64,000 nt of DNA from a virus (Duplodnaviria > Heunggongvirae > Uroviricota > Caudoviricetes), in the IMG/VR virus record IMGVR_UViG_3300017987_000047. One strand, written 5' to 3'. The notes beneath the pieces are model-generated. The model was given only the letters and a program-made list of their open reading frames with translations, searched no databases and had not been told where the DNA came from. Numbering within the stretch: the first letter of the stretch is position 1; each line of letters opens with the position of its first letter. Positions 1,089-51,463 of this stretch are shown in pieces. A program made the position numbers and the translations under genes.

Positions 1089-2408
1089 ATGGCAACTGTC
1101 CTAAAACACCGTAGGTTCGTAAAAGTCGACACGAAGAGAAATAATAACAAGTATTGGTACATCACGCTTTATGATGATGGTACGGTCAAAACAGAATATG
1201 GCCGGGTGGGTTATAACGGACAAGTTTCTTCTGATGGCCCTTTTTCCCAGCCGGCAGCCGAGAGAAAATTCGAAAGCAAAATTAAATCAAAGTTAAGGGG
1301 GAAAAAGGACGGGGAAAAGGCATATACTGAAATCGATGTTTTAGAGGCGACTTCGGATACACCCAAAACGGCCAGCAAAGCAGTAGACCAAAAGAACTTA
1401 CGGCAACTGGCAGCAGAACAGATTGGGTCGGGGGATAAGGAAGTCACAAAGCTTGTGAGTTATCTCGTCAAGCAAAATATCCACACGATTGTGGAGAATA
1501 CGACAATTCAGTATAATGCTCAAACGGGCAACTTTTCAACGGCGTGTGGGACTGTTACTCTCGACACGATTGACGATGCTCGTAAGTTTTTGGAAAAGCT
1601 TGCGAAGCACGTTTCGAACAAAAGGTTTAAGGGTAAAATCGTTGAACGGAATTTAGAAAGCTATCTCACCTTAATCCCACAACACCTCGGAATGAAGGCA
1701 CCGGCGCTTGATCGGCTTTGCCCTGATCTCGATGCTGTGAAAAAGCAAAACCAACTATTGGATTCACTGGAAGCGGGTATTAGCGTTTTCAAACAATCCG
1801 CAACTCAGGATGAAGATAAAAAAGAAGACGATACACCAAAGGTTTGGGATGTGTCCCTCGCCCGAGTTGACGCTAAGAAAGAATTAGATCGCATCCGGCG
1901 GCTTTACCGGAAAACTGCTAAGTCCATGCACACCTCTTCTAGTTTGGATGTTAAGCGGGTATTTACTGTGCGGATTAAGCAAATGGCAGATGCCTTTGAA
2001 AAGAAAGGGAAAGCGATTGGAAATATTATGCAACTCTGGCATGGCACCCGGGTTGCCAATATTCTCTCAATCCTCGCAAAAGGCTTAATCATCCCACCCG
2101 CCCGATCTTCTCACTGCACAGGGAGGATGTTTGGGAATGGAGTTTATTTCTCGGACCAGTCAACAAAAGCGTTAAACTACTCTCACGGGTATTGGGGTGG
2201 GTTCAAGGACAACAATTGTTTTATGTTCCTTGCTGATGTCGCAATGGGTAAGACGTATACCCCACGTTCTTGGAGCGAACCTTTCCCGAAGGCTGGGCAC
2301 GACTCAACCTTTGCAAAGGCAAGCGTGAGTGGCGTGATGAACAATGAGATGATCGTCTACAAGCTTGCCCAATGTAACCTAGTTTACTTGGTTGAGTTTG
2401 GTAGCTAG
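1089..2408 (+). CDS. WGR-domain poly(ADP-ribose) polymerase (PARP) family ADP-ribosyltransferase
   Basis: N-terminal WGR-like NKYWYITL...EYGRVG; catalytic LWHGT, GRMFGNGVYF and NNEMIVY give the H-Y-E triad. Confidence 0.9.
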   Translation: MATVLKHRRFVKVDTKRNNNKYWYITLYDDGTVKTEYGRVGYNGQVSSDGPFSQPAAERKFESKIKSKLRGKKDGEKAYTEIDVLEATSDTPKTASKAVDQKNLRQLAAEQIGSGDKEVTKLVSYLVKQNIHTIVENTTIQYNAQTGNFSTACGTVTLDTIDDARKFLEKLAKHVSNKRFKGKIVERNLESYLTLIPQHLGMKAPALDRLCPDLDAVKKQNQLLDSLEAGISVFKQSATQDEDKKEDDTPKVWDVSLARVDAKKELDRIRRLYRKTAKSMHTSSSLDVKRVFTVRIKQMADAFEKKGKAIGNIMQLWHGTRVANILSILAKGLIIPPARSSHCTGRMFGNGVYFSDQSTKALNYSHGYWGGFKDNNCFMFLADVAMGKTYTPRSWSEPFPKAGHDSTFAKASVSGVMNNEMIVYKLAQCNLVYLVEFGS

Positions 2409-13792: not shown

Positions 13793-14249
13793 AGGGGAAC
13801 AAGTTGAAATCGAAGATCCCCAAAAAGGGAACTTGAGTAGATTCCTAACATCTCAAAACCCAAAGGTACGAAACCATGTTGCTGCGATGCTTGGGTTAAA
13901 GATCTCAGGTATCGTGTATAAACAATTAGAATTTTATGTTGAGGAGATTCACGATCTTGAAAAGAAAAAGAAAAGAACTAGAACTTCCTTTAGAATAACT
14001 TTAATTAAGGAGGAGATTAAACTAAAAATTCTATTTACCGAAACCGGGGCGGAGACAGAAGTTTTTTTCTACTACCTTTTTGCTAAGGAATCGTTACCTT
14101 ATATTGAACAAGCTAGTTCTCTGAAACTGCTTCTCCCAAAAATTAAAAGCATTTTCGATAAAGAAATCGATATTGCTGCCCTCAAACAAAAGATTACCAA
14201 AAGGCTTCTAAAAGAGGTGAACAATGCTAGGACGTCAAGACAGGCTTAA
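13776..14249 (+). CDS. hypothetical protein
   Basis: 157-aa ORF; FLTSQNPKVRNHVA motif near N-terminus. Confidence 0.6.
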   Translation: MKRITRGEQVEIEDPQKGNLSRFLTSQNPKVRNHVAAMLGLKISGIVYKQLEFYVEEIHDLEKKKKRTRTSFRITLIKEEIKLKILFTETGAETEVFFYYLFAKESLPYIEQASSLKLLLPKIKSIFDKEIDIAALKQKITKRLLKEVNNARTSRQA

Positions 14250-15702
14250 CCGACTCAATAAGATTGTAGAATCCGGGGATACCCCATATAAAGATCAGTT
14301 CACAAGAACCCACAGCCTAGAAGAGGCAGGCACGTTAGAGGATGGATTGGAAAACGTAGCTCTGGCAGGCCGAGTTATCCTTAAGAGAAATCAAGGGAAG
14401 CTCTTGTTTGGGCAGATTCAAGATTTCTATGGCCGCATTCAATTTTCAATTAAGGCCAACACTCTTAGTAAAGAAGTTATTAAGGCTTTTGATAAGACTA
14501 TTGATCTTGGGGATATTGTCGGCATTAGGGGAACGATGTGGACTACCCAGAGAGGCCAAAAGACTCTTGATGTCCACGACTATTCTCTTTTAACAAAGGC
14601 TATTAACCCTCAGCCTGAAAAGTGGCATGGCGTCCAAGACCAAGAACTTGCCTACCGTAAGCGGTATCTTGATCTTAGTGCTGCGGGTAATGATGAAAGC
14701 CGAAAACGTTTTAAGGTGGCTCTCGCTATCCCAAAGATAATCAGGGATAATCTAGAGCAGGCAGGGTTTATTGAAACGCCGACGCCAATCCTTGTCCCCA
14801 TAGCAAGTGGCGCCGCAGCCAACCCATTTCAAACCCACCACGATAAACTGGATATTCCCCTATATTTACGAATCGCGCCGGAAACATATTTGAAAAGACT
14901 TTTGATTGCCGGCTTTCCAAAGGTTTATGAACTTGGGCGTTGCTTTAGAAATGAAGGAATGTCTACCGAGCATCTCCAAGAATTTCAAATGGTAGAAGTT
15001 TATGATGCGTATTCAAACTATAAGGACACAATGAGGTATGTAGAAAACCTTGTTAAAAATATAGTACTTAATGTTTGTAACTCTTATAAATTTACCTTCC
15101 GTGGGAAAGATTATAACTTGGAGGGTAAGTTTGAAGAGGTCGATTACGTTTCTGCGGTAGAAGAGGCTACTGGGATTAATGTTTTAGAATATGATAGCTT
15201 CCAAGAGCTTTGGGGAGCCATTTCCGAGAAGAAGGGGGAAAGTTTTGCTACGGAACTACATCCCCCAGAACATATTGTGGGACTGGGGACTTTAATTGAC
15301 CTCTTATATAAGAAAACTGTTCGGCCTAACATCATGGGCCCTGCTTTTCTTATTGGTCACCCTGCTGCTGTTTCTCCCCTAGCAAGACAGAATGGCACTA
15401 ATCCTAAAATTGCTGATCGCTACCAATTAATTATTGGTGGGATTGAAGTTATAAATGGTTATTCAGAGCTCGCAGACCCACAGGAACAAGCAGCAAAGTT
15501 TGAAGAACAAGCAAAAGTTTCCGCTACTGATAACGAAGCGATAAGCGCCGAAGATTCTTTTGTGGAAGCTTTGACCTATGGTATGCCTCCCGCTAGTGGC
15601 TGGGGGATGGGCATTGAACGCCTAGCGATGATTCTAACAGACGCTCCCAGTATTCGGGATGTGGTTTTGTTCCCTACAATGAAGCCGGAAGAAAAGGGTT
15701 AG
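14224..15702 (+). CDS. lysS: lysine--tRNA ligase (class II)
   Basis: OB anticodon domain, GAAANPF, LRIAPETYLKRL, motif 2 FRNEG, motif 3 YGMPPASGWGMGIERL. Confidence 0.95.
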   Translation: MLGRQDRLNRLNKIVESGDTPYKDQFTRTHSLEEAGTLEDGLENVALAGRVILKRNQGKLLFGQIQDFYGRIQFSIKANTLSKEVIKAFDKTIDLGDIVGIRGTMWTTQRGQKTLDVHDYSLLTKAINPQPEKWHGVQDQELAYRKRYLDLSAAGNDESRKRFKVALAIPKIIRDNLEQAGFIETPTPILVPIASGAAANPFQTHHDKLDIPLYLRIAPETYLKRLLIAGFPKVYELGRCFRNEGMSTEHLQEFQMVEVYDAYSNYKDTMRYVENLVKNIVLNVCNSYKFTFRGKDYNLEGKFEEVDYVSAVEEATGINVLEYDSFQELWGAISEKKGESFATELHPPEHIVGLGTLIDLLYKKTVRPNIMGPAFLIGHPAAVSPLARQNGTNPKIADRYQLIIGGIEVINGYSELADPQEQAAKFEEQAKVSATDNEAISAEDSFVEALTYGMPPASGWGMGIERLAMILTDAPSIRDVVLFPTMKPEEKG

Positions 15703-19543: not shown

Positions 19544-19934
19544 CTTTTATTTAGTCCCTTTAACCCACAAAGGACCAAATTCAAAGTATTTCCCAGAAAC
19601 AAGGGTTTTGCATCCTGCCATTAGGGTAGACGACGCAATCTACGATCTTATTACTTTTAATTGGGGAAACCACGGTACGTCCGTAATTTCAGATGGGCTT
19701 CGTAAACTTCCCTCAAGGGAACCAGCTGATAGTCCGCTTTGGGATAGATATAAAGTTCCACCTTCTGTTTTTTTAACGAGTATTAGCCAATTTGCAAGAC
19801 ACCTAGCAAAGTCTTATTTAGCAGGAGATATTGACTGGGTTAGGATAGCAATTGAAATTGCTTATAGGGAACTAGGTAGGGAAATGGAATACTTTTTTCA
19901 AAAACTTCATGATAAAGGGGGATGCCTTCCATGA
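19530..19934 (+). CDS. hypothetical protein
   Basis: 134-aa ORF, ATGA coupling to next gene. Confidence 0.6.
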   Translation: MKTVDFYLVPLTHKGPNSKYFPETRVLHPAIRVDDAIYDLITFNWGNHGTSVISDGLRKLPSREPADSPLWDRYKVPPSVFLTSISQFARHLAKSYLAGDIDWVRIAIEIAYRELGREMEYFFQKLHDKGGCLP

Positions 19935-20449
19935 TAAAGAAAAATTTACCGGTCTTAGCGTATCTAATTTTAGCAGCAACTGCGAACATTGTAACAACCA
20001 GAGGGTTTGAGCTTATCGGTCCCTACATCATGCCTATTGTGGCATTTATTTTCATTGGGGTTGATATAACTTTGCGGGATAAAATTCACGAACGGTGGGC
20101 CCGCAAAGGTCTCTGGTGGAAGATGGGATTTTTAATTTGTGGCGGTTCCTTGCTTTCTTGGGTCACCTACCCAGAAGCAGGTCAGGTAGCCTTAGCATCG
20201 GCCTTGGCATTTTGTGGTGCTGGAATTGTGGATACTTTTATCTACCATATAGTAAGAAAGAAATCCAGAAGAGCTGCAATTCATACAAGTAATGTTGGTT
20301 CTGCAGCAATTGATTCACTTATCTTTCCCTTTGTTGCCTTTGGAATTTTAGCCCTTCCGATTATTGCGATGCAATTCGCGGCGAAGGTAGCAGGGGGCTC
20401 AATCTTTGAAGTTGTTTGGCATAGGGTAACTAAGGATTCTTCAAAATGA
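19931..20449 (+). CDS. VUT family (YhhQ/DUF165, queuosine precursor transporter-like) membrane protein
   Basis: Multiple TM helices; DITLRDKIHE and SNVGSAAIDSLIF match VUT motifs. Confidence 0.75.
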   Translation: MIKKNLPVLAYLILAATANIVTTRGFELIGPYIMPIVAFIFIGVDITLRDKIHERWARKGLWWKMGFLICGGSLLSWVTYPEAGQVALASALAFCGAGIVDTFIYHIVRKKSRRAAIHTSNVGSAAIDSLIFPFVAFGILALPIIAMQFAAKVAGGSIFEVVWHRVTKDSSK

Positions 20450-20919
20450 TAACCCTAGCTTCTCTTTTAACTATGGGGCGCGGCGAACATCTCTTTGCTA
20501 AAGAAATAATTCCCATTCTTGGAAAAAACTTCGAGGTTTTTGGGGTGGAAAAAAGGTCAAAGAGAAACTTTAGGGTTTATCTTACAAAATATTTTTGGGT
20601 TGATGTTTCCCCGCAAATTTACGTAGTTTGGAACCGCACTTTGCCCGAATTCCAATACTCTGTTATAACCTACAAGGAAGTTATATATAGGGTCAATAAC
20701 CCTTTTGAACCAGAATATTCCTTTATTCGGGGTTTAGATGAGGTATTACGCGAAATCAAAAATGAATTTAAGTCTAAGTTAAAACGATTTTGGCATTCCT
20801 TTCATTTTAACAGACACCTTAAAAACTCTCTTTTTAATCGGAACCTTAAAAACCCACCTTTCGCTTCTTCCGCCTTATCCCCTTCGTTAAAATTTCTTGT
20901 TGAAAATCAGAGGAAATAG
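20446..20919 (+). CDS. hypothetical protein, paralog A
   Basis: Aligns along its length with 20950..21390. Confidence 0.7.
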   Translation: MITLASLLTMGRGEHLFAKEIIPILGKNFEVFGVEKRSKRNFRVYLTKYFWVDVSPQIYVVWNRTLPEFQYSVITYKEVIYRVNNPFEPEYSFIRGLDEVLREIKNEFKSKLKRFWHSFHFNRHLKNSLFNRNLKNPPFASSALSPSLKFLVENQRK

Positions 20920-20949
20920 GTTTATACTAAAGCAAACCCAGAATATTCA

Positions 20950-21390
20950 ATGGCAATGAAATTAGCAACTTTGTTAACCATGAAACGGCCTGTCGCCCTT
21001 TTCGCAAAGAAGGTAATTCCAATTCTTGGAAAGGATTTCAAGCTTTTTGCGGTAGAGAAGAACGATGAATGTTCACAATTTATCATTTGTTTCACCGAGT
21101 ACTTTTGGGTTGAAATTTTCCCCCAATACTTGATATCCACCAACCCTAATTATATTCTACCGGAATATCAATATATTGTTAAGACTTATAAGGATATTAA
21201 GAATTATGGATATCTAAATTATTCATTGGTTAGAGACCTGGGTAGCGTGCTCCAGGAAATTAAAACAGAATTAAAACCAAAGCAAAAACGATTTTGGCAT
21301 TGTTTTCGTTTTCTCTTTTTTGTTAAAAATTCTGTAAGATGGAAATACGCCAGGGAAGACAAAGTTGTTCCAACTAAGCGAAACCCTTAA
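20950..21390 (+). CDS. hypothetical protein, paralog B
   Basis: LLTM..LFAK..IPILGK.F..F.VEK...FWVE..PQ..PEYQY...KQKRFWH.F.F shared with paralog A. Confidence 0.7.
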   Translation: MAMKLATLLTMKRPVALFAKKVIPILGKDFKLFAVEKNDECSQFIICFTEYFWVEIFPQYLISTNPNYILPEYQYIVKTYKDIKNYGYLNYSLVRDLGSVLQEIKTELKPKQKRFWHCFRFLFFVKNSVRWKYAREDKVVPTKRNP

Positions 21391-21682
21391 AGTCCCTAAA
21401 AATGTCAGAAAACCCGAGAGGCTTATTAACGGGTAGGCCATCATCTATTTCAACTTGAAGAATTTTTCTAACCCGAGGATAAGTTTTTTTCCGGCGAATA
21501 TACCGGGGTTTCACACTAAATGGGTGATCCAGTTGCATTAAAAATTGGTAAACTTCTTCTCCCGAATCAAAGAAAAGGCAAAACCGTTTTCTCTTTGCTT
21601 TTGGGTTCCCAGAAATGCAACCATATTTTTTGTAATCTCTAGATGTTGGTCTTAATTCTACTTCTATTTGTGGTCGTTTCAT
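21374..21682 (-). CDS. hypothetical protein
   Basis: 102-aa minus-strand ORF filling a gap between plus-strand genes. Confidence 0.5.
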   Translation of the reverse strand: MKRPQIEVELRPTSRDYKKYGCISGNPKAKRKRFCLFFDSGEEVYQFLMQLDHPFSVKPRYIRRKKTYPRVRKILQVEIDDGLPVNKPLGFSDIFRDFKGFA

Positions 21683-21790
21683 ATATCACCTTTATTGTGC
21701 CTACCAATTATATACAATTGGATCCTTCGTTTTTCAAGGAAATATCCCTATATATTTTTTAACGGCAGGAATAAAAACAAAGGAGTTAAG

Positions 21791-22318
21791 ATGACTTTCA
21801 TGCCAAATTGTAGAGCCGCCGTTGCCGTACTAATACTACGGCCCTTAGACCAAACAACGGCGACTAATCAATACCTAGCAATCCGCAACGCTAAGCGGGA
21901 TGTTTGGGAATGCCCTGGAGGAAAAATCGAACCGGGGGAAACCCCAACCCAAGCCGCAATCCGAGAAGTAGCAGAAGAAACGAACTTGCGGCTGAATCCT
22001 CAGAAATTACGACTTGAGAGAGTCTACGCCAACCCAACCGAGGATGGACAAACTTTTATAATGTTCTTTTTTCACTATAACATAGGGGAAGAGCTGCATC
22101 AATTAGATTATCTCAAATTAAGCGAGGAACACACTGACTTCTCTTGGAAGAAGTTAACAGACTTGCTAAATCTTAGCCCCGAGGATGCCGCACCCCGGTT
22201 TTTAGACTATATCCGAAGCCACTTTTACGTAAACCGTTCAACCCCGGATATCGATGTGACTCAAAAATCTTGGTATCCGGGCGAAGCCCCAACCGCCGGT
22301 TTTTCGAAAGGGAGCTAA
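21791..22318 (+). CDS. Nudix hydrolase
   Basis: Nudix box GGKIEPGETPTQAAIREVAEETNL; AGGAG RBS. Confidence 0.92.
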   Translation: MTFMPNCRAAVAVLILRPLDQTTATNQYLAIRNAKRDVWECPGGKIEPGETPTQAAIREVAEETNLRLNPQKLRLERVYANPTEDGQTFIMFFFHYNIGEELHQLDYLKLSEEHTDFSWKKLTDLLNLSPEDAAPRFLDYIRSHFYVNRSTPDIDVTQKSWYPGEAPTAGFSKGS

Positions 22319-22320
22319 AA

Positions 22321-23472
22321 ATGATCACAAGCCTCCTCGACAACGATCTCTACAAATACACGATGCAACAAGCGGTGCTTGAACGCTACTACGGCGTTGA
22401 AGTTGAATACCGCTTCACAAATCGGGGGAAACAAAGATTCTCTCCAGAATTCCTTGAGATGTTGAAACAAGCGATCAAGGACATGGAGAAAATTAAACTC
22501 ACCCCGCAAGAGTACGTCTGGTTGCGGGACAATGTTGCGTTCATCAAACCCCAGTATCTTGAGTACCTAAGAAGTTATCGCTTTAATGCCAACGAAGTGT
22601 CTCTTTCCCTTACGGAAGAGAATGATCTTGAGTTGACAATCAAGGGCCCGTGGCATTCAACAATTCTCTGGGAAGTTCCACTGCTTGCCTTAATTAGCGA
22701 ATGCTACTTTAAGACCGTCGACACTTCTTGGGACGCGGAAGGCCAAACAGATAAAGCAAGAAACAAAGCTAAGCGTCTTAAAGACGCAGGATGCCTTTTC
22801 GCAGATTTCGGGACGCGGAGACGTCGCTCCAGGTGGAACCACGCAATTGTCTTGAAGGGACTTAATTCAACCGACGCTTTTGTTGGGACAAGCAACGTCC
22901 TCTTTGCTAAAAAATTGGGCTGTAAGCCAATTGGGACGATGGCACATGAGTTTTGCCAGGCAATGGCTGTGCTAGAAAGCCTAAACCACCCCAATAAGCA
23001 TATGATGAAGAAATGGTACTCTGTCTATAACGGACGGCTAGGAATTGCCTTGACAGATACCTATGGGCTCGAAGCCTTCTTGGGAGACTTTAACCTAAAA
23101 CTTGCTAAGCTCTTTGATGGGGTTCGGCACGACTCGGGATGCCCATTCAAGTTCACAGATCAAATCATTGCCCATTACGAGAGGCTGGGTATTGACCCTA
23201 AATCAAAAACAATTGTTTTTAGCGACGGCCTAAACGTGGACAAAGCCATTGAATTGAATGATTATTGTAAAGGAAGGATCAAATGCTCTTTCGGAATTGG
23301 TACTTTCTTCACCAACGATTTTGAAGAGAGCAAAGCATTAAATATTGTCATTAAACTTTATAAAGCCAATGGAAAGCCCGTTGTAAAATTAAGCGATGAC
23401 CCAGGAAAGGCCATTGGCGAACCTGACGCCGTGCGCGTAATGAAGTGGCTTTTCTTTGGAGAAGCACTTTAA
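22321..23472 (+). CDS. pncB: nicotinate phosphoribosyltransferase
   Basis: DNDLYKYTMQQ, DFGTRRR, GTSNV, GTMAHE, DTYG, GVRHDSG, FSDGL, SFGIGT, KLSDDPGK. Confidence 0.95.
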   Translation: MITSLLDNDLYKYTMQQAVLERYYGVEVEYRFTNRGKQRFSPEFLEMLKQAIKDMEKIKLTPQEYVWLRDNVAFIKPQYLEYLRSYRFNANEVSLSLTEENDLELTIKGPWHSTILWEVPLLALISECYFKTVDTSWDAEGQTDKARNKAKRLKDAGCLFADFGTRRRRSRWNHAIVLKGLNSTDAFVGTSNVLFAKKLGCKPIGTMAHEFCQAMAVLESLNHPNKHMMKKWYSVYNGRLGIALTDTYGLEAFLGDFNLKLAKLFDGVRHDSGCPFKFTDQIIAHYERLGIDPKSKTIVFSDGLNVDKAIELNDYCKGRIKCSFGIGTFFTNDFEESKALNIVIKLYKANGKPVVKLSDDPGKAIGEPDAVRVMKWLFFGEAL

Positions 23473-23575
23473 CCGGAAAGAAGAAAAATGAATCTTGGTA
23501 TTAAAGATATCAGAAAAGCCGATTAAGAAACGATACAGTCTGCTTCCTGGATTAGGCCCTAGCAGGAGAAAAACA

Positions 23576-25366
23576 ATGAAAGTTAAGCTTGGCGAAATCA
23601 ATACTACCCCTAACGACTTTGATGGGAACCGCGACAGTATTCTCACAGTCTTAGAAGAGGCGAAAAAAGAAAATGCAGACCTTACAGTTTTCCCCGAGCT
23701 TGCAATTTGTGGGTACCTTTCAAAGGACCTACTTTACCAAAAAGGGTTCATCCAGAGGAATCTAGAGGCACTGCGTCATATCCAAAATTGGAGTGCTGAA
23801 AACCACGGCATGGCTATTGTTGTTGGCTATGCTAGTTGGAATAACGGGGGAAAAGGCAAGCCCTTTGCTAACATGGCGGCAGTTGTCCGAGATGGAATGA
23901 TTATTGGCACCTATCAAAAACACCTTTTACCGTTCTACGATGTTTTCGATGAAGGGAGATATTTTGAACCTGGGACCAATCTTTGTGTTGTAAATATCGC
24001 CGGGAAAAAATGTGGCATTACGATTTGCGAAGATGTATGGAACGACAAGGGTGCTGATGATTATTCTTACGAGGATAACCCCGTGGGAAGGTACCGCAAA
24101 GTTGGGGTTGAGGTGCTTATTAATATTAGCAGCTCTCCTTTCGCCCAAAGAAAATCGCGGAAAAGGTTTGGGGTGCTGTCTAAAATTCCAACATTAGAGC
24201 CAATTACTGCTCTAATTTATGTTAATCAGCTTGGCGGGCAAGATGAGCTTGTATTTGATGGAAAAAGCTGTATTATAACCCGGAATAGTTCTTTCGTCAC
24301 AGAGGCGCCAGGCCGAAAAGTTGGTGGGGGGATCGAGAGTCAAAAAATTGCCCCAGCGCGGGCCTTAGAAAATATCAGCGGATGGCCGCTAAACGACTTT
24401 GACCGGCCGTACGAAGATATTTATAAAGCAATTATCCTAGGCTTGTCCGATTATGTAAAGAAATCAGGATTTAAGAAAGTTGTTCTTGGGAGTTCTGGGG
24501 GAGTTGATTCCGCCTTAGTTGCTGCTCTGGCAGCCCATGCGGTAGGACCCAAAAACGTTCATTGTATTATGATGCCGGGGCCACACTCAAGCGAAGGGTC
24601 AGTTAAGGACGCACAAAAGTTGCACCGAAATTTAGGATGTGTTGAGCATACGGTTCCAATTCGGGCGGAAGAGGAATTGGGGCATATCAACCAACAGATC
24701 AAACTAAAAAGCCCATATGACCCTATTGCGGATGAAAATATTCAGGCACGACTTCGGGGTCTTACCGTGATGCATTTCTCCAATGCCTATGGTGCTTTGC
24801 CTCTCTCCACCGGAAATAAAACGGAACTTGCAGTTGGGTATTGCACTCTGTATGGTGATATGAACGGGGGTTTTAACCCAATCGGGGACCTCTATAAGCT
24901 TCAGGTCTATCAAGTTGCAGACTTTATCAACGAATATTACAACGCTGGAAAGTATACCCCAGTTATTCCAAAGGAAATCCTACAGAAAGCACCAAGTGCT
25001 GAACTTGCGCCCGACCAAACAGACGAGAAAAGCCTACTCCCCTACGAAATTCTTGATTTTATCGCAATGGCTTATCTTGAATATTATATCGACGATTTCC
25101 AGGAATTCTTCAACTGGGTTGTGTTTGGAACGCTCCAAGAAAAGTATCCTGTCCTGGCTTCTTGGGAAAACCCATTCGTTAAAGTTCGTCTCTGGGTGGA
25201 CGAAAAGGGATCCGAAGAAGAATTCTATAAGATCATTCGGCGTATCGATGCAGTAGAGTTTAAACGGCGCCAGGCAGCGCCCTGTATTAAACTAAGCAAA
25301 GTTTCTTTCGGAACGGGTCGGCGCCTCCCAATCGTCCAAAAGCTCCGTGACATCCCTCACGCGTAG
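23576..25366 (+). CDS. nadE: glutamine-dependent NAD+ synthetase
   Basis: Nitrilase domain (FPEL, QKHLLP, ICEDVW) plus synthetase domain (SGGVDS, NIQARLRG, TGNKTE, KAPSAEL). Confidence 0.95.
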   Translation: MKVKLGEINTTPNDFDGNRDSILTVLEEAKKENADLTVFPELAICGYLSKDLLYQKGFIQRNLEALRHIQNWSAENHGMAIVVGYASWNNGGKGKPFANMAAVVRDGMIIGTYQKHLLPFYDVFDEGRYFEPGTNLCVVNIAGKKCGITICEDVWNDKGADDYSYEDNPVGRYRKVGVEVLINISSSPFAQRKSRKRFGVLSKIPTLEPITALIYVNQLGGQDELVFDGKSCIITRNSSFVTEAPGRKVGGGIESQKIAPARALENISGWPLNDFDRPYEDIYKAIILGLSDYVKKSGFKKVVLGSSGGVDSALVAALAAHAVGPKNVHCIMMPGPHSSEGSVKDAQKLHRNLGCVEHTVPIRAEEELGHINQQIKLKSPYDPIADENIQARLRGLTVMHFSNAYGALPLSTGNKTELAVGYCTLYGDMNGGFNPIGDLYKLQVYQVADFINEYYNAGKYTPVIPKEILQKAPSAELAPDQTDEKSLLPYEILDFIAMAYLEYYIDDFQEFFNWVVFGTLQEKYPVLASWENPFVKVRLWVDEKGSEEEFYKIIRRIDAVEFKRRQAAPCIKLSKVSFGTGRRLPIVQKLRDIPHA

Positions 25367-25386
25367 AGGTAAGAAAGAAGGATAAA

Positions 25387-25899
25387 ATGCAAAGCCGAAT
25401 TGGAGTTTACGCAGGATCGTTTGACCCCATCACAAAAGGGCACCTTGCTTTAATTTCAGTAGGTTCATCTCTGTTTGATGAGCTTATTGTTTTAGTTGCG
25501 AATAACCCTAAGAAAAAATACTTATTCTCTACTACCCAACGCTTACTCCTCGTTAAAGACGCTATTAAGGAAATACAAGAACATATCTTAACAAATGTCC
25601 GGGTCGAGTTGATGGAAGTTGGGTCAACTGCACGACATGCGAAGGCATTGGGGGCAAACTTCTTATTACGAGGGATGCGCAACGGTAAAGATTTTGAGGA
25701 GGAGCGAGAGATAGATTTTATCAATAGGAAGCTTAACCCGGACCTTCAAACAATTTATCTTTTCACTTCGAAGGATCTTGGGGAAATCAGTTCTAGCTCT
25801 GTAAAAGCATTGATGTCCATTTCTGCTCGTGACGTTGTCGAAGAAATGGTAACGAGAAATGTATATAGAGCGCTCTTGGGGGAATTTGAATGTCAATAG
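25387..25899 (+). CDS. coaD: phosphopantetheine adenylyltransferase
   Basis: YAGSFDPITKGH, NPKKKYLFS, LRGMRNGKDFEEE, ISSSSVK. Confidence 0.85.
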   Translation: MQSRIGVYAGSFDPITKGHLALISVGSSLFDELIVLVANNPKKKYLFSTTQRLLLVKDAIKEIQEHILTNVRVELMEVGSTARHAKALGANFLLRGMRNGKDFEEEREIDFINRKLNPDLQTIYLFTSKDLGEISSSSVKALMSISARDVVEEMVTRNVYRALLGEFECQ

Positions 25900-26510
25900 C
25901 ACTTTTTGGGGGTGCCTTTAACCCTGTAACGCTAGGACATCTCCAAACCGCGAAATTCATTCTAGAGCACTGCCCTAGCATCAGCGAAGTCTGGTTAACC
26001 CCTTGTTATAAACACCAATATGGAAAGGGCCTAGCCCCAGATAACCAAAGACTTGAGATGCTCACTTTAGCAACCGCGGAGGAAAAGCATATACAAGTCT
26101 TTGATTACGAAATCGCTTATACCTTGCCGGGGGATACCTATACCTTTTTATCCCGGCTTCTCGTTGATCGGGCCTATGGGGAATTCCAATTTTATATGGC
26201 AATTGGAATGGATAATGCTGCTACCTTTGCTCGATGGTATAGGGCGGAGGAGGTAAAGAAATTAGTTCCTTTCATAATTCTGCCACGAAAGGGGTATGAA
26301 GCCCCACAAAATCCTTGGTATAAGCATGGAGAAGGGAACTTCCACTTAGACTTAACTCGAAAACCCCATCCGCCTATGGAAGTTTCTTCAACACAGGTAA
26401 GAGAAGCTATCGCTAAGCAAGATATCTCATATCTTAAAACCTCGTTGGACTTTAAGGTATTGGATTATATTATAACAAATAAACTTTATGGGCATAACGA
26501 TGGAATTTGA
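25890..26510 (+). CDS. nadD: nicotinate-nucleotide adenylyltransferase
   Basis: FGGAFNPVTLGH, RLEML, IGMD, VSSTQVRE. Confidence 0.9.
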   Translation: MSIALFGGAFNPVTLGHLQTAKFILEHCPSISEVWLTPCYKHQYGKGLAPDNQRLEMLTLATAEEKHIQVFDYEIAYTLPGDTYTFLSRLLVDRAYGEFQFYMAIGMDNAATFARWYRAEEVKKLVPFIILPRKGYEAPQNPWYKHGEGNFHLDLTRKPHPPMEVSSTQVREAIAKQDISYLKTSLDFKVLDYIITNKLYGHNDGI

Positions 26511-27020: not shown

Positions 27021-28274
27021 ATGTCCGAGTTTCGAAAGGTATCCCTACCCAAAGGAAGAACTGAGATGAAGTCAACACACAAAGCATTTGTCGAGCCAAT
27101 TATTCTAAAGGAGCATCCCAATGCGGATTCCCTTTCGCTTGTAACAATTAAGGAAGTCTGGAATGTAGTTGTTCGGACTGAAGATTGGCAAGGGGTTGAC
27201 CGGGGGGTTTTCATCCAGCCGGATACCCTAGTTCCTGACACAGACCATTTTTCATTCCACTTCAAAAAAACTTACCGTCTAAAGTCTGATAAAAATACGA
27301 GGGTTGCCGCAAGAACAATAGAAGAAGCTTTAGAGCTCCTAACAGAACAAGGGATTACTGTAACGGAGAAAGACCTTGAGACAGTTCTCTCAAATTCTCG
27401 TTATACAATGATGCCTGACGGGACCTCTATAAAAAGGGAAGATGGCGCATACGCGCGTGTCACTGTTAAAAAATTCAGAGGAATTAAATCTTTTGGGCTC
27501 CTGGTTCCAGCCCCAGAAGGAGCCGAGATCGGGGATAATTTAGCAGAGGAGCTCGGGCTCCAACATTACGAAGCCGCAATTAGCGCAGTAGGGGGAGAAA
27601 GCGAACGGGGACCCTCAGGTGTAACAGCTCCAAAATATGACGTTGACGCACTAAAGAATAACATCAAAGCTTTTGAAGAAGGGGAATTAGTTTCGATTTC
27701 TGAAAAAATTCACGGAACTAACGCTCGGTTCTTTTATGGGAAAGACTCTGATGAAGTGGAGAGGATGTTTTGCTCTTCTCATTATCATTGGAAAAAGGAT
27801 TCTCCCGCTTCTGTTTGGTGGCGAGCCCTCCGAGCACACCCCGAAGTTGAGCAATTTTGTAAAGAGAATCCTGACGTCGTAGTCTATGGGGAAGTCTACG
27901 GCAACCCGGTTCAAGGTTCTTACGATTATGGTCTTGACGACGCAGCCGTTGGTATCTTTGTCTTTGATCTTTTCCGGCTTCCAAAAGAAGGGGAGCCTCA
28001 AGGGCATTGGATCGATGTAAAGGAAGCCAGGGCAATTGGAAAAGATCTTCCTTGGGTTCCTTTGATCGCCCATGACGTCCCGTTTGACATGGAAAAAATC
28101 CTAGAGATGGCAGAAGGAAAGTCTACCGTTTCAGGAGTTCGGAAGGGGCATATCCGGGAAGGCGTTGTTGTTCGGCCAATGAAAGAGAGATCGATTACAG
28201 AATTAGGGCGGGTTTGTCTCAAAGTTGTTGGCTTCGGCTACTATGAGAAAAAACATAAAAAGAGAAACAAATGA
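27021..28274 (+). CDS. RNA ligase, DRB0094/Rnl2-like with N-terminal OB domain
   Basis: HPNADSL, motif I EKIHGTN, YGEVYG, FDL, REGVVVRP, LKVV. Confidence 0.88.
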   Translation: MSEFRKVSLPKGRTEMKSTHKAFVEPIILKEHPNADSLSLVTIKEVWNVVVRTEDWQGVDRGVFIQPDTLVPDTDHFSFHFKKTYRLKSDKNTRVAARTIEEALELLTEQGITVTEKDLETVLSNSRYTMMPDGTSIKREDGAYARVTVKKFRGIKSFGLLVPAPEGAEIGDNLAEELGLQHYEAAISAVGGESERGPSGVTAPKYDVDALKNNIKAFEEGELVSISEKIHGTNARFFYGKDSDEVERMFCSSHYHWKKDSPASVWWRALRAHPEVEQFCKENPDVVVYGEVYGNPVQGSYDYGLDDAAVGIFVFDLFRLPKEGEPQGHWIDVKEARAIGKDLPWVPLIAHDVPFDMEKILEMAEGKSTVSGVRKGHIREGVVVRPMKERSITELGRVCLKVVGFGYYEKKHKKRNK

Positions 28275-30961: not shown

Positions 30962-31984
30962 ATGCGCATCGAACGTTGGACTGTTAAGGTTGTTGAGGAG
31001 CTGGAAGTTTTTGTCATGGTGCAGGATCGGGTCAAAGGAACTACCGACGAGAAGTGGATGACCCATATCGAATTCCGAGCATACGCCGGACTCCCCGAAG
31101 ACCACAAAATACAGGAGAGGGAATCTCATACTATTAACGAAGAGATGCTCGAGAAGGGCGAGCGTGTCCTTAACGATGAGGAAAACGAAAGGGTCAAGGC
31201 GAGAAGAGAGGTTGAGAAGCTTCCCAAAGAAGCAATTGAGGCCTACCGAAACCTTTTCCGGGATTGCCGAGATGCCCACGATATCAAAGATACTTATGAG
31301 TCGGAGGCGTTTGCGGAACTTGTTAAGGAATATCCCCCATTCGGCGGATACAAGGACGTGCATCTTGAAGAGCTTGCTGATGACCTAAAGAAGGTTCGCC
31401 GTACCTTCGCAGATGACTTTGACCGCATACAAGTGGCATTGCTGCAAAAAGGAATTTCCGGAACGGCACGGAAAGCCCTAATTGATAATTTACGGCACTC
31501 TTGGACTCACCCCAGCATAAAAGATGCGGTTCTGGTGTATCCGGAGCTAACAGAACTCCTAGAACTCTTTGTCGCGGTGTTGGAAGATCCAGCGAAGCAG
31601 AAGGAAAATAAATGTGAGTGTGATTGTGGAGATGATGGGGAATGCCAAGAAGATTGTGCTTGCGCCGAAAAAGACAGCGCGCCGCAACCAAAGGATTTCT
31701 ACTTTGCCACAAGGGAAAAGGACCAGAAACTTTTTATTACGTGGCGCCAGTATTTCCAAGACAACGAAAAGCCCGCTGAAGATGAGAACTTCGGGTATCC
31801 CGAAGACAAAGGGGATGTGATGGAGGCTCTAATTGATGAGCTGCATTTCCCCTTTAGCCTAACAATCGCAGGAGATGGCGTTTTTAAATGGGAAAAAGCC
31901 ACAGAAGAGGAAGTCCGGGACTTTTTCCTGAAAGCAGGATTTATCCAGCAGAAGGACTTCGATGACAGGTGTGTTGAAGCCTAA
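30962..31984 (+). CDS. hypothetical acidic protein
   Basis: AAGGAG RBS before ATG 30962; Cys-rich patch CECDCG. Confidence 0.7.
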   Translation: MRIERWTVKVVEELEVFVMVQDRVKGTTDEKWMTHIEFRAYAGLPEDHKIQERESHTINEEMLEKGERVLNDEENERVKARREVEKLPKEAIEAYRNLFRDCRDAHDIKDTYESEAFAELVKEYPPFGGYKDVHLEELADDLKKVRRTFADDFDRIQVALLQKGISGTARKALIDNLRHSWTHPSIKDAVLVYPELTELLELFVAVLEDPAKQKENKCECDCGDDGECQEDCACAEKDSAPQPKDFYFATREKDQKLFITWRQYFQDNEKPAEDENFGYPEDKGDVMEALIDELHFPFSLTIAGDGVFKWEKATEEEVRDFFLKAGFIQQKDFDDRCVEA

Positions 31985-35660: not shown

Positions 35661-36200
35661 ATGAAACCAGAAACGATCTATGGTTTCCCCCGCTCTTTAA
35701 TCACTTACCAAAAGGGGAGGATTAAGAAGAGCGCAGAGGGGGTCAACCTAACTTTTAAAAAAATTCGTCCTTACCTTTCCTTAAAAACCCAAAGTAACCT
35801 AGAGATCTTTACGAAGGTTAAACAAATTACGTGGAAAAAGGTATGGGTCTTTTTCGTAAAACGAAGACGACGAGAATATTCAAAAACAAAGGTTACGTAT
35901 AAAGAATATGAAAGAGCCTCTATCCTCATTGAAGGAAAAGACGAAAAAGGAATCGTTTACCAATATTGGAGAAAAGAAACGGCCCACCCAGGAGCGGGAC
36001 AGACTCTTTTATATACTGAAGGGCGGAAACCAAAGCAAGCAATGAATATCATTGGAAACTATGCTAACGCCCATATGAAAGTTAAGCGTGCGATTAAAAA
36101 GAACGAGCTAAAGTCTTTATTAACAGACGAAGATAAATTTGTGCGAACATTCGCAAAGGAAGCATTAGGAGAACAAGATGGCGACGAAATACCCGACTGA
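35661..36200 (+). CDS. hypothetical protein
   Basis: 179-aa ORF; C-terminal LLTDEDKFVRTFAK. Confidence 0.65.
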   Translation: MKPETIYGFPRSLITYQKGRIKKSAEGVNLTFKKIRPYLSLKTQSNLEIFTKVKQITWKKVWVFFVKRRRREYSKTKVTYKEYERASILIEGKDEKGIVYQYWRKETAHPGAGQTLLYTEGRKPKQAMNIIGNYANAHMKVKRAIKKNELKSLLTDEDKFVRTFAKEALGEQDGDEIPD

Positions 36201-38202
36201 CCCTACGAAACTGTCTCAGCAGGAAATCGAGGGATTCCTCCAGGAATGGAGCGATTCTTATTATAACACGGAAGACGCTAAATCCATTGCCCCAGATAAT
36301 GTCTATGACCTATTCAAGGACTATTTGGAAGCGCAGTACCCAGACTCGACCTTCTTAAAGGTTGTCGGTGCCCCTGTTAAAGTTTCTGAATGGGAAAAGA
36401 TGGAGCATGAAATCCCTATGGGGAGTCTTGATAAAGTCCACAACGTGGATGATATTAAGGCTTGGTCTAGTTCCATCGGCGCTAAAAATTTCTGGATCAC
36501 TGAAAAGCTAGATGGCATTAGCATTGAACTTCTTTATGACGATGGAAACCTTACAGCAGCCATTACCCGAGGGAATGGTAAAGTAGGGGAAAATATCTTA
36601 GCTAATGTCCAGCGGATGAAGAACGTTAAGCGAAAATTGGCCATTCCTTTTAATGGGACAATCCGAGGCGAGATCATTCTAAGGAAAAGCGAGTTCGCTA
36701 AACTTAGCAGCGATGGGTATTCTAACCCACGAAACGCGGCAAGCGGTATCGCTCGGCGGTACGATGGGACCCAAGCAGAGCACCTTGAAATTCTTTACTA
36801 TGATATTATTGCTTATGATACTGAGCATGAAGACCAGATTACCTCCGAAGCAAGCAAAATCAAATTTATAAAAGGGCTTGGGGTCAAAGCGCTCGAAGGG
36901 GAAGTAGTCGACCTTAAGAAAGCCGATAAAGTCTACGAAGACTATAAAGCAGCAAGACGAGCAAAACTTGATTATGAAATTGACGGCCTAGTTCTAAAAG
37001 TTAATGACCTAGACATTGCCAACAAGATTAACGATACCGCAACAAGCGATAACTCAAACCCGAAAGCCCAAAGGGCTTGGAAATTTGACCAACCAATGGG
37101 GATCTCCAAGCTAAAGAAAATTCTTTGGAGTACGGGAAAAGGTGGAAGTGTAACCCCCGTTGCGTTTTTCGAGCCCATTAGTTTAGCTGGGGCTTCTGTG
37201 CAAATGGCATCAATGCACAATTTAAGCATTGCTGAAGACTTAAACGTGAACACCGGCGATGAAATTATCGTCATTCGCGCGAATGATGTCATTCCACAGG
37301 TGCTTGGAATCCATAAAAAGCATAATAATAAGAAAATTGAAGTTCCTACTGTTTGTGGAGAATGTGGGAAAAACCTACATCTTGAAACTTCCCAGACAAA
37401 AGATCGGGTAATTAAGACGCTTCATTGCATTAACGAGGACTGCCCAAAATTGAAACTTGGGAAAATTATCCGGCTTATCGAGGTCTTTGAAATTAAGGAT
37501 TTTAGCGAGTCTCGGATCCAGGCTTTATATGATGCTGGTTTTGTAAAAGATGCGGCCGATTTGTTTACATTTGACCGCGCCAAGGCAGCAAACCTCGAAG
37601 GCTTTGGAAAACGAATCTTTGATAAATTGGATAAACACCTAGAAGAAAAATCAAAGGTTTCGCTATCGCAGTTTCTTGCGGCTCTAGGAATTCGAACCCT
37701 TGGCCGCCGGCAATGGAAGAAAGTAGTTGATGCTGGGCATGACTCGTGGGATAAGATCGAGACCTTGATGCACCTCCCAGAACAAAATTTCGTAACGGAG
37801 CTTAGCAAAATCAAAGGGCTGGGGGAAGAAATTTGTAAAATGATGTACCAAGGCTTAGTAAAAAATAAAAGCTTTGCATCTAAACTTCTCCAACACCTAA
37901 CGATTAAAAAATCTGGGACTGCTGATGGGAAACTCAGAGGGTTAAACCTTTGCTTTACGGGGTTGCGCAAATTCAACGGAGTTGACCTAGCAAAGCTTAT
38001 TCAAAGCGAGGGTGGGGCAGTTCGGAACTCGGTTAGTAAAAACTTGGATATGCTAATCGTTGCAGATTTAAACTCCGGCAGCTCGAAGATGAAGAAGGCA
38101 AAGGATCAGGGAGTTAAGTGTATTGAAGTGGAAGACTTCTTTAAGCAGTTCGGATTTGAAGCTGAAAAACCCAAAGCAGACGAGGAAGAAGACATCATCT
38201 AG
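36178..38202 (+). CDS. ligA: NAD+-dependent DNA ligase
   Basis: EKLDG, TRGNG, RGE, NPRNAASG, DGLVLK, AWKF, C4 zinc finger, HhH, BRCT. Confidence 0.95.
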   Translation: MATKYPTDPTKLSQQEIEGFLQEWSDSYYNTEDAKSIAPDNVYDLFKDYLEAQYPDSTFLKVVGAPVKVSEWEKMEHEIPMGSLDKVHNVDDIKAWSSSIGAKNFWITEKLDGISIELLYDDGNLTAAITRGNGKVGENILANVQRMKNVKRKLAIPFNGTIRGEIILRKSEFAKLSSDGYSNPRNAASGIARRYDGTQAEHLEILYYDIIAYDTEHEDQITSEASKIKFIKGLGVKALEGEVVDLKKADKVYEDYKAARRAKLDYEIDGLVLKVNDLDIANKINDTATSDNSNPKAQRAWKFDQPMGISKLKKILWSTGKGGSVTPVAFFEPISLAGASVQMASMHNLSIAEDLNVNTGDEIIVIRANDVIPQVLGIHKKHNNKKIEVPTVCGECGKNLHLETSQTKDRVIKTLHCINEDCPKLKLGKIIRLIEVFEIKDFSESRIQALYDAGFVKDAADLFTFDRAKAANLEGFGKRIFDKLDKHLEEKSKVSLSQFLAALGIRTLGRRQWKKVVDAGHDSWDKIETLMHLPEQNFVTELSKIKGLGEEICKMMYQGLVKNKSFASKLLQHLTIKKSGTADGKLRGLNLCFTGLRKFNGVDLAKLIQSEGGAVRNSVSKNLDMLIVADLNSGSSKMKKAKDQGVKCIEVEDFFKQFGFEAEKPKADEEEDII

Positions 38203-41042: not shown

Positions 41043-41472
41043 AACGGAAGAAAGGAGTATTACTAAGTATGAATGCCAGAGGACCTCCGATTGGTTATTA
41101 AAGACCGACAGGAAAAACTAATGATGGCTCGATATCGAGCGGTGATTTCCTTATGGTTATTTCCCCTGCGGTATCAGCACGAAGATCTTAAGGTTAGTTT
41201 GTAGCAACCTTGTTGACTACCTTAGGGCTGCGAAAACGCTACAAAAGGCAACAACTAAAATGGAGAGTTAGCGATGCCTTAGGAAAGACTAGAACGAAGA
41301 CAAAGACAGAGGACAGTAAAAAATAATTGATGTGGCAAGGACGTGAAAACCTCGCTTGTTGCATACTAAATCTCGGGGTTCTTGAAGTATATAAGGGCCC
41401 GCCATATAAAGTAAGTGTATAAAAAGTAACGTTCGAAAAAACCGGCCTCACCTCATAGGGGTGGGGCCACTT

Positions 41473-41555
41473 GCCGGGGTGGCGAAATTGGCAGACGCGA
41501 CAGATTTAAGATCTGTTTCCCTTTGGGAGTGAGGGTTCAAATCCCTCCCCCGGCA
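41473..41555 (+). tRNA. tRNA-Leu(UAA)
   Basis: GCCGGGG/CCCCGGC acceptor, ACAGA-TTTAAGA-TCTGT anticodon arm, long variable arm, TTCAAAT T-loop, A73; CCA not encoded. Confidence 0.95.
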
Positions 41556-41564
41556 TGTGAATAA

Positions 41565-41819
<255 letters not shown>

Positions 41820-45915: not shown

Positions 45916-46221
45916 ATGGATACGACAACCTCGATTTCGCATGAAGAGTATCTTGAGATGGCCAGCCTTTTCCGCACACGCTTGCGTAATTGGGATAAAA
46001 CCCAACGCGAGTTGAAGCGGAAAGGGAATTCTGCCCGTTCAGAATTGTTTCAGAACCGGTATCGAATCTCTGCTCTGCTCAACTATTACCTCGCTTGGCG
46101 TGGGGTTGAGCCGAAACATGGGGTGCGTGAGAACTATTTCGCGTGCTGGATTTACCGGGAAGAGACAGAGAAACTAATGAAGGAATTCGGCGAGCCGAAG
46201 CCGAAGACCAGGGATTCCTAA
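45916..46221 (+). CDS. hypothetical protein
   Basis: GGAG RBS before ATG 45916. Confidence 0.6.
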   Translation: MDTTTSISHEEYLEMASLFRTRLRNWDKTQRELKRKGNSARSELFQNRYRISALLNYYLAWRGVEPKHGVRENYFACWIYREETEKLMKEFGEPKPKTRDS

Positions 46222-46230
46222 ATCCTGGTT

Positions 46231-46323
46231 GGGGGACTAGCTCAATTGGTAGAGCAGCGGGTTTATGCCCCGTGTTAGTGTCTGATAAACACAAGGTTCT
46301 GGGTTCGAGTCCCAGGTCCCTCA
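46231..46323 (+). tRNA. atypical 93-nt tRNA, anticodon UAU, long extra arm
   Basis: GGGGGAC/GTCCCTC acceptor, GCTC/GAGC D stem, GCGGG-TTTATGC-CCCGT, 25-nt variable region, CTGGG-TTCGAGT-CCCAG. Confidence 0.85.
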
Positions 46324-46337
46324 TAAGAAAAAGAAAA

Positions 46338-51022: not shown

Positions 51023-51463
51023 ATGCCAGACAAAGAGATTAAATTCTACGGCCCTACTGACGAATACGGGTTCTTCTCAAACTTCTCCGCCCATCCGATT
51101 AGCCTAAAAGGAAAGGTCTGGCCTACCTCCGAGCATTACTACCAAGCACAGAAATTTGCGGGCACGGAAATCGAAGAAAAGATTCGATGGCTACCCGCTC
51201 CTGGAAAAGCCTTTCGGGAAGCTCGAAAACATAAATTGAGGGAGGACTGGGAAGAAGTAAAAGTTGATGTAATGCGCGATGCATTGCTTGCGAAATTCAC
51301 CCAACACGGGGACCTTAGACGAATTCTTTTAGGGACTAAGGATGCCCTTTTAATCGAGCACACTCCCCGCGATTCTTTTTGGGGGGATGGCGGGGATGGT
51401 AGTGGAAAAAATATGCTCGGAACTCTTCTTATGGAACTGAGAGAAAAGCTAAGGGGACAATAA
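51023..51463 (+). CDS. NADAR (YbiA-like) protein
   Basis: FFSNF, WPTSEHYYQAQKF, AKFTQH, IEHTPRDSFWG, GKNMLG. Confidence 0.93.
   Translation: MPDKEIKFYGPTDEYGFFSNFSAHPISLKGKVWPTSEHYYQAQKFAGTEIEEKIRWLPAPGKAFREARKHKLREDWEEVKVDVMRDALLAKFTQHGDLRRILLGTKDALLIEHTPRDSFWGDGGDGSGKNMLGTLLMELREKLRGQ

Follow-up and report, generated by a model that had tools for sequence, protein, structure and literature searches.

A predicted nicotinate-to-NAD+ operon enclosing a phosphopantetheine adenylyltransferase gene in a probable huge aquatic phage

Reconstituting nicotinamide adenine dinucleotide (NAD+) has been proven as a strategy of phages (10.1101/2024.02.11.579819; PMC13464706), and NARP1 (Adps and Namat), NARP2 (Nampt and Nmnat) and NARP3 (PnuC and NadR; PMC13464706) have each been shown experimentally to rescue phages. 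All of these pathways run through amidated intermediates (ADP-ribose pyrophosphate plus nicotinamide, nicotinamide mononucleotide (NMN) and nicotinamide riboside, respectively) and have no need of the NAD+ synthetase NadE; the preprint on NARP1 and NARP2 makes no mention of PncB, NadD or NadE (10.1101/2024.02.11.579819). Genes of the deamidated, Preiss-Handler route have been reported from jumbo phages of the animal gut. Li et al. (Microbiome 2024; PMC11662467) described 174 "NAD-jumbo phages", including clusters of pncB, nadD and nadE (Kuafu_71, Kuafu_19) presented as complete Preiss-Handler pathways, found LigA in 90 of the 174 and PARP as well, and proposed both self-supply and counter-defense against Sir2-type NAD+ depletion, pending experiments. 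Here we analyze a 64,000-nt stretch of the IMG/VR virus record IMGVR_UViG_3300017987_000047 (hereafter the window), in which five plus-strand genes encoding a Nudix hydrolase, PncB, NadE, CoaD (a phosphopantetheine adenylyltransferase, PPAT) and NadD are packed into positions 21791-26510. Judging by gene content, we favor, with a probability of roughly 0.65, the reading that these genes form an auxiliary cofactor-supply operon of a huge aquatic phage.

Like NARP1-3, the operon is phage-encoded, would end in NAD+ and could offset NAD+ depletion. It differs from them in running through nicotinate mononucleotide (NaMN) and nicotinate adenine dinucleotide (NaAD), in needing a host PncA when it starts from nicotinamide, and in being known from its genes alone. 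The NARP1/2/3 gene pairs themselves (Adps/Prs-like, Nampt, PnuC, NadR) were not found among the approximately 60 open reading frames (ORFs) of the window scanned with Pfam or PHROG, and the phosphoribosyltransferase of the operon is a PncB equivalog, neither Nampt nor Namat. With bacterial PncA-PncB-NadD-NadE salvage the operon shares clear homologues, a full set of catalytic motifs and a two-domain, glutamine-dependent NadE; here, however, PncA is absent from the window and the genes stand in one operon with a Nudix gene and a PPAT gene, whereas bacterial nadD, nadE and pncB are usually dispersed. The Kuafu clusters, compared by their published description, resemble it in their huge or jumbo phage source, in the clustering of pncB, nadD and nadE, in the company of LigA and PARP and in the roles proposed. 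The operon departs from them in its order, Nudix-pncB-nadE-coaD-nadD with the PPAT gene inside, and in its origin from sediment and seawater rather than animal gut.

Gene content and layout of the operon

ORFs were taken from a six-frame list of the window and then checked for start codons and ribosome-binding sites. Families were assigned to the approximately 60 ORFs by Pfam or PHROG scans, and the enzymes were scored against NCBIfam equivalog models (cut-offs: TIGR01514, 269.55 bits; NF010588, 479 bits; TIGR01510, 103.3 bits; TIGR00482, 112.45 bits). An earlier note on this DNA, drawn up from the letters and their ORFs, had reported five co-directional genes with intact motifs, and all five were recovered with their catalytic signatures (Table 1).

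PncB reaches 462.7 bits against TIGR01514, above the cut-off and over the full length (residues 19-391 of the long ORF), and its closest PDB entry is 1yir (E 6e-84). It carries GTRRR at 164, GTMAHE at 205, SDGL at 301 and FGIGT at 324, all at positions invariant across a 23-sequence alignment; we take GTMAHE to hold the autophosphorylated histidine and the other motifs to bind phosphoribosyl pyrophosphate (PRPP). NadE likewise exceeds its cut-off (NF010588, 530.8 bits), has 5kha (E 1e-96), a glutamine-dependent enzyme, as its best PDB match, and retains both a complete Glu-Lys-Cys triad (FPE39, KHLLP115, CED151) and the P-loop SGGVDS307. For NadD, all 18 PDB matches are NadD or unnamed members of the NadD family (best 2qtr, E 2e-18), and the motifs GGAFNPVTLGH (at 7) and SSTQVR (at 166) are present. 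Since NadE is encoded in the same operon, the deamidated substrate would be the coherent one for NadD. By gene content, PncB, NadD and NadE make up a complete predicted Preiss-Handler route from nicotinate to NAD+, in agreement with what the earlier note had claimed for them.

The activities of the enzymes, their substrates, the direction in which flux would run and the biological role are deduced from these genes. The host would supply PRPP and nicotinate, the latter from its own PncA or by uptake; PncB would convert the two, with ATP, to NaMN, which NadD would adenylylate to NaAD and NadE would amidate with glutamine to NAD+. In parallel, PPAT would convert 4'-phosphopantetheine to dephospho-coenzyme A (dephospho-CoA), so that an infected cell would have a greater capacity to make two adenylylated cofactors. 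Most plausibly, the resulting NAD+ would feed the phage LigA, WGR-PARP and RNA-repair enzymes; it would further cushion the infected cell when NAD+ is lost, as it is to NADase defenses among other causes.

The genes are closely spaced, with intergenic distances of 2, 103 and 20 nt and then a 10-nt overlap between CoaD and NadD. No terminator-like sites lie between them; such sites on the same strand are all intragenic and occur at chance frequency. The ribosome-binding site AAGGAG precedes the Nudix ATG at 21791, and the promoter presumably lies in the leader upstream of it, which is bordered by a minus-strand ORF (21374-21682) that is also called in a related Joint Genome Institute contig, L004. 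A sigma-70 scan gave no significant match in the leader, and its matches in the window occur at chance frequency. The promoter-like word CCCTATATATTTTTT in the leader was rejected, its single occurrence in the window being the chance level. No riboswitch or other known RNA from Rfam was found in or before the operon at E values up to 1. The 133-aa ORF that follows nadD, which has no match in Pfam, NCBIfam or PHROG, is probably co-transcribed with the operon, judging by its spacing.

Phage context, conservation and precedent

A huge phage as the source is strongly supported, though not proven. The window is 92% coding, lies nearly all on one strand and contains many small ORFs without a family, and an identical PncB occurs on contigs of up to 384,251 bp. 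PHROG matches are phage-typical, with a T4-type polynucleotide kinase (PNK; phrog_505, E 5e-89) and an RnlA-like RNA ligase/tail-fiber attachment catalyst (phrog_562); further matches are to a pair of ATP-dependent ligases, to LigA and to an exonuclease. At the nucleotide level a single GenBank phage matched, an uncultured huge phage of 595 kb, and the contigs that hold the nearest relatives of PncB (57-60% identity) are phage-like and encode NadE as well. The 64-kb window showed neither a capsid nor a terminase gene.

Independently assembled contigs of this phage, from four runs and three studies, have the five genes in the same order, and the runs that carry the operon come from sediment and seawater. 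Contig L004 keeps the order Vut-like protein, o146, Nudix, PncB and NadE at 75-91% protein identity. Between the two relatives, PncB and NadE each have a ratio of nonsynonymous to synonymous substitution rates (dN/dS) of 0.047, with dS saturated at about 2. Both genes are under strong purifying selection, and the operon genes are working genes of the phage lineage, not decaying cargo.

Two features immediately upstream may be recorded here. A membrane protein at 19922-20449, 1.3 kb upstream of the operon and 91% conserved in L004, has a weak match to Vut_1 (the YhhQ-type vitamin/queuosine-precursor transporter family); it could import a precursor, and niacin as its cargo is pure speculation. 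Between this gene and the operon lie two adjacent paralogous ORFs (157 and 146 aa; 20446-21390) that match no family and show approximately 50% mutual identity across phages.

Such gene sets are no rarity: viral contigs carry them frequently. A PncB relative was found in 13 of 50,697 GenBank phage records, including huge uncultured phages, Atu_ph07 and Phosso, and in 305 viral stretches of IMG/VR. Neighbors within 10 kb of PncB were surveyed at the best 80 of these 305 by single tblastn queries, which makes the following counts lower bounds: NadE lies nearby at 49 loci, NadD at 17, NadE together with NadD at 15, a similar Nudix gene at nine, and CoaD at two, which are one phage counted twice. 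The earlier note had presented the operon as a third, undescribed route and had suggested a survey of phage databases. Clusters of pncB, nadD and nadE with LigA, PARP and the counter-defense idea are in fact published (PMC11662467) and common in IMG/VR; the claim of an undescribed route fails, the operon being in essence a common phage module that had been described before. The operon is thus a further example of a published gene set, not a new pathway. It also falls within the NAD-jumbo class, with pncB, nadD and nadE inside 4.2 kb, a phage-type context and a contig of 384,251 bp (>200 kb). Its value lies in being a clean, intact and selectively maintained phage example of the Preiss-Handler route from an aquatic megaphage and, as a compact operon that can be cloned in one piece, a test case against NAD-depleting defenses.

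Two other records touch on this gene set. At one viral locus (L039:8206-14048), a PncA-like isochorismatase, a vWA-like protein, PncB, NadE and a PP2C phosphatase are encoded in a row, with NadD just downstream (~14050) and CoaD and a sugar nucleotidyltransferase 4-5 kb upstream. The 735-kb huge phage LR756501.1 is credited with nadD only (PMC11662467); tblastn adds a PncB relative (43% identity) at 430275-431429, 400 kb from NadD at 31133-31723.

CoaD and the Nudix hydrolase

The PPAT gene wedged between nadE and nadD is the sole unusual element of the operon. The earlier note had named coaD in its title for the operon and given it no role; its identity as a PPAT is borne out. CoaD scores 146.9 bits against TIGR01510, above the cut-off; all 34 of its PDB matches are PPATs (best 3nd5, E 9e-31); and the motifs GSFDPITKGH, PKKK, RGMR and ISSS were found. 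It has 21 invariant columns in common with 13 homologues, and a copy at 82% identity exists (P0122). Its nearest relative beyond the immediate lineage (45% identity) is encoded directly after CoaE, the enzyme of the following CoA step, on a phage-like contig with LigA, RtcB and TerD genes as well. PPATs are no rarity in phages, with 87 matching viral stretches in IMG/VR, and in a survey of 80 viral CoaD loci CoaE adjoins CoaD at six. All sequence tests mark the protein as a true CoaD, and its pairing with CoaE, in the nearest relative and in six of the 80 loci, makes a genuine role in the CoA pathway the reading to prefer. NAD genes lie within 10 kb of CoaD at 13 of the same 80 loci (Nampt at seven, PncB at four and NadD at four, with PncB and NadD together in one duplicated phage), and the association of CoaD with NAD genes in phages is recurrent but weak. 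CoaD directly adjoining NadD, as it does here, was seen at none of the 160 surveyed loci (80 PncB and 80 CoaD).

Other PPATs annotated as coaD in phages (Caulobacter Bertelyvirus, Brevundimonas jumbo phages, Myxococcus phage Mx1 and others) belong to large phages and show 34-40% identity. In Caulobacter phage C2 the PPAT gene is 4 kb from a Nampt gene, with an RNA ligase nearby. The PPAT genes of the Caulobacter, Brevundimonas and Mx1 phages stand outside any NAD operon, whereas the present one is embedded in one, and several viral contigs pair PPAT with CoaE instead of NAD genes. CoaD matches 64 GenBank phage records, several of them contaminated; the coaD context of "Microcystis phage MaAM05" (MW495066.1 31382-41840, L095) was left unused because it looks bacterial, the region encoding rplA, rplK, nusG, secE and a tRNA and resembling a bacterial chromosome. 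No functional study of a phage PPAT was found in the jumbo-phage literature. In bacteria, the PPAT step is the one under CoA feedback control, and the embedded gene raises the question of whether giant phages boost CoA or dephospho-CoA and link this to NAD+. At four other loci, viral or phage-like, a 370-aa DFP-domain (CoaB-like) protein is also encoded, its gene lying between those for PncB and NadE or next to them (43-47% mutual identity; Table 1), and this recurrent protein is a second link of CoA-pathway folds to phage NAD genes.

The Nudix hydrolase is a compact, single-domain member of a small phage family with a common E-H pair and two tryptophans. Its Nudix box (residues 44-66) is intact except for the penultimate glycine, which is replaced by asparagine. 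In a second phage clade, members of this family are encoded approximately 6 kb away from PncB (L027, L028, L029, L030, L035, L043, L051). The earlier note had this enzyme split ADP-ribose to ribose-5-phosphate, a claim that structure and sequence comparisons do not favor, since neither the PDB nor the Foldseek matches are better to ADP-ribose pyrophosphatases (ADPRases) than to other types. Sequence matches in the PDB are weak and mixed (DR1025, MutT-like enzymes, DIPP, diadenosine tetraphosphate (Ap4A) hydrolases, CoA pyrophosphatase and ADPRases). An AlphaFold (AF2) model built from nine family members (pLDDT, the predicted local distance difference test, 73.8) matched Ap4A hydrolases, CoA pyrophosphatase, GDP-mannose hydrolase, MutT, NudJ, RppH and one ADPRase with near-equal Foldseek scores. 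ADPRase models of NCBIfam give 19-27 bits against cut-offs above 400. The NudF-type feature SPGxxxE is absent here and occurs in PncB-linked Nudix genes of other phages, and other viral PncB loci have, in its stead, ADP-ribose pyrophosphatases of the classical NudF or NadM type (L018, L053, L085, L056). A proline 16 residues after the Nudix box, a mark of ADPRases, is present, but it is unconserved within the enzyme's own family and was dropped as a criterion. The protein therefore shows no ADPRase-specific likeness, and ADP-ribose may nonetheless be among its substrates. Because of its link to NAD genes, the enzyme probably hydrolyzes an NAD-related dinucleotide; ADP-ribose cleavage is a guess, and decapping of NAD-RNA is an equally hypothetical alternative.

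Candidate roles and neighboring genes

Isochorismatase/PncA, Prs, Nampt, PnuC, NadR and CoaE were found among none of the approximately 60 window ORFs by Pfam and PHROG. Six phage isochorismatase-family ORFs used as tblastn queries gave chance matches only in the window (E >= 0.1), and tblastn for CoaE and CoaB (DFP) gave none there. Domain scans and tblastn thus agree with the earlier statement that PncA is not in the window. Starting from nicotinamide and ADP-ribose, the predicted NAD route needs host PncA and host Prs, and the leg from ADP-ribose to PRPP that had been claimed for the phage rests wholly on the host. The genome spans at least 384 kb, and a PncA gene outside the window is quite possible, because other huge phages with PncB carry isochorismatase-family (PncA-like) genes in other parts of their genomes (all five records searched, in three of them above the cut-off).

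Several observations weigh against reading the operon as a cofactor supply. No niacin transporter was found in the window, and with PncA, Prs and CoaE absent there as well, both pathways lean on host steps. The NadD score against TIGR00482 is 109.4 bits, approximately 3 bits short of the cut-off of 112.45, over a match spanning 1-194 of 194, and a preference for NaMN over NMN is unreadable from its sequence. NAD genes lie near CoaD at only 13 of the 80 viral loci, and CoaD may have come to stand in the operon by a chance ordering of genes at this locus, with no functional coupling. For the Nudix enzyme, neither sequence nor fold comparison tells an ADP-ribose type apart from Ap4A, CoA or MutT types.

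A dedicated counter-defense system is a possible but less probable reading of the same genes. As a deamidated analogue of NARP1/2/3 directed at SIR2, TIR or SEFIR NADases, it would have host PncA convert nicotinamide to nicotinate, the Nudix enzyme split ADP-ribose to AMP and ribose-5-phosphate and host Prs make PRPP, from which the phage enzymes would rebuild NAD+ quickly enough for replication to be rescued. Such a role would accord with the proven use of NAD+ reconstitution by phages, with the proposal of Li et al. for jumbo-phage NAD genes (PMC11662467), with the PncA-like genes of the other PncB huge phages and with the NudF-type ADP-ribose pyrophosphatases beside PncB at viral loci L053, L085 and L018. 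Set against this, two needed steps (PncA and Prs) are absent from the window, the Nudix enzyme is neither of the NudF type nor assignable to ADP-ribose, the route would be dearer than NARP1 or NARP2 in ATP and in steps, and the several NAD+ consumers of the phage itself explain the operon without recourse to defense. Self-supply alone explains the operon, and buffering against NADase defenses is compatible with it.

Control of non-canonical RNA 5' caps would give a single rationale for the odd mixture of Nudix, NAD and PPAT genes, yet we consider it improbable. RNA polymerase has two main adenine-containing initiating nucleotides, NAD+ and dephospho-CoA, which would be the products of NadD/NadE and of PPAT; by setting their levels and removing caps with a Nudix enzyme acting as E. 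coli NudC does and as is reported of a T4 Nudix protein, the operon might control the 5' capping of phage or host RNAs and possibly feed PARP- or ADP-ribosyltransferase (ART)-mediated RNAylation. The surroundings would suit such a role, as the operon sits among RNA-repair genes and that of a phage sigma factor, and T4 RNA is NAD-capped, with a T4-encoded Nudix decapping enzyme reported (10.1101/2024.04.04.588121). This support is purely circumstantial, however: no NudC-specific feature was detected in the Nudix protein, NCBIfam RppH models score far below their cut-offs, PPAT lies near NAD genes in a minority of phages only, and cofactor supply is the simpler reading. Least likely of all is that the genes are passive host-derived cargo, or that the window derives from a cellular genome or a mis-binned contig, so that the genes would play no part in a phage life cycle. 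All five belong to ordinary cellular enzyme families, the window lacks capsid and terminase genes, and bacterial contamination clearly accounts for some "phage" records that carry CoaD or NadD (MW495066 and many short records). Strong purifying selection, with synonymous divergence saturated between two phage relatives, argues against this reading, as do the constant gene order in assemblies of four runs and three studies on contigs of up to 384 kb, the phage-typical setting (T4-type PNK, RnlA-like ligase, small ORFs without a family, 92% coding) and the phage-like contigs that carry the closest PncB relatives.

The NAD+ consumers on which cofactor supply draws are encoded in the window: the earlier note had credited the phage with PARP and LigA, and both are present (Table 1). 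Besides a phage sigma factor, the window encodes a PNK, three RNA ligases and two 2H phosphoesterases, and these, together with the NADAR-domain protein, make it look like an island of RNA repair and ADP-ribose processing. An RNA ligase lies near PncB at seven of the 80 IMG/VR loci.

Table 1. Coordinates of the operon, of neighboring features in the window and of DFP-domain proteins at other loci
Feature	Position	Strand	Evidence or remark
5' leader, presumed promoter region	21683..21790	+	108-nt gap upstream of the Nudix start
Nudix hydrolase, 175 aa	21791..22318	+	PF00293, E 4e-17; phrog_1198
PncB, nicotinate phosphoribosyltransferase, 383 aa	22321..23472	+	NAPRTase_N and NAPRTase (Pfam); TIGR01514
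NadE, glutamine-dependent NAD+ synthetase, 596 aa	23576..25366	+	CN_hydrolase PF00795; NAD_synthase PF02540
CoaD-type PPAT, 170 aa	25387..25899	+	CTP_transf_like (Pfam); TIGR01510
NadD, nicotinate-mononucleotide adenylyltransferase, 206 aa	25890..26510	+	CTP_transf_like (Pfam); TIGR00482
ORF, 133 aa	26531..26932	+	20 nt 3' of nadD; also in another assembly of the same phage
RNA ligase, DRB0094/Rnl5-like	27021..28274	+	PF09414, PF21189, TIGR02306, phrog_968; downstream neighbor
WGR-PARP, phage NAD+ consumer	1089..2408	+	PF05406 WGR; PF02877 PARP_reg; PF00644 PARP, E 4e-31
LigA, NAD-dependent DNA ligase, phage NAD+ consumer	36178..38202	+	phrog_3869, E 9e-146, full length
NADAR-domain protein (ADP-ribose processing)	51023..51463	+	PF08719, E 4e-41
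2H phosphoesterases, two (2H-SAK, LigT-like)	48656-49192 and 52647-53180		
DFP-domain protein, other locus	L006:16878-17990		
DFP-domain protein, other locus	L011:13489-14667		
DFP-domain protein, other locus	L073:14714-15868		
DFP-domain protein, other locus	L005:5119-6249		

Further translation- and RNA-related features are scattered through the window. Beside the T4-type PNK, a 492-aa ORF (14224-15702) has the class II aminoacyl-tRNA synthetase domains tRNA_anti-codon and tRNA-synt_2, as read from precomputed Pfam matches on an identical contig. A tRNA-Leu(taa) gene at 41472-41556 is followed 33 nt on by a full-length group I intron (RF00028, 87.6 bits; 41589-41787), which lies outside the tRNA as called. 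A tRNA-Ile(tat) gene at 46230-46324 is unusually long, at 95 nt, and overlaps the start of an ORF at 46143-46730.

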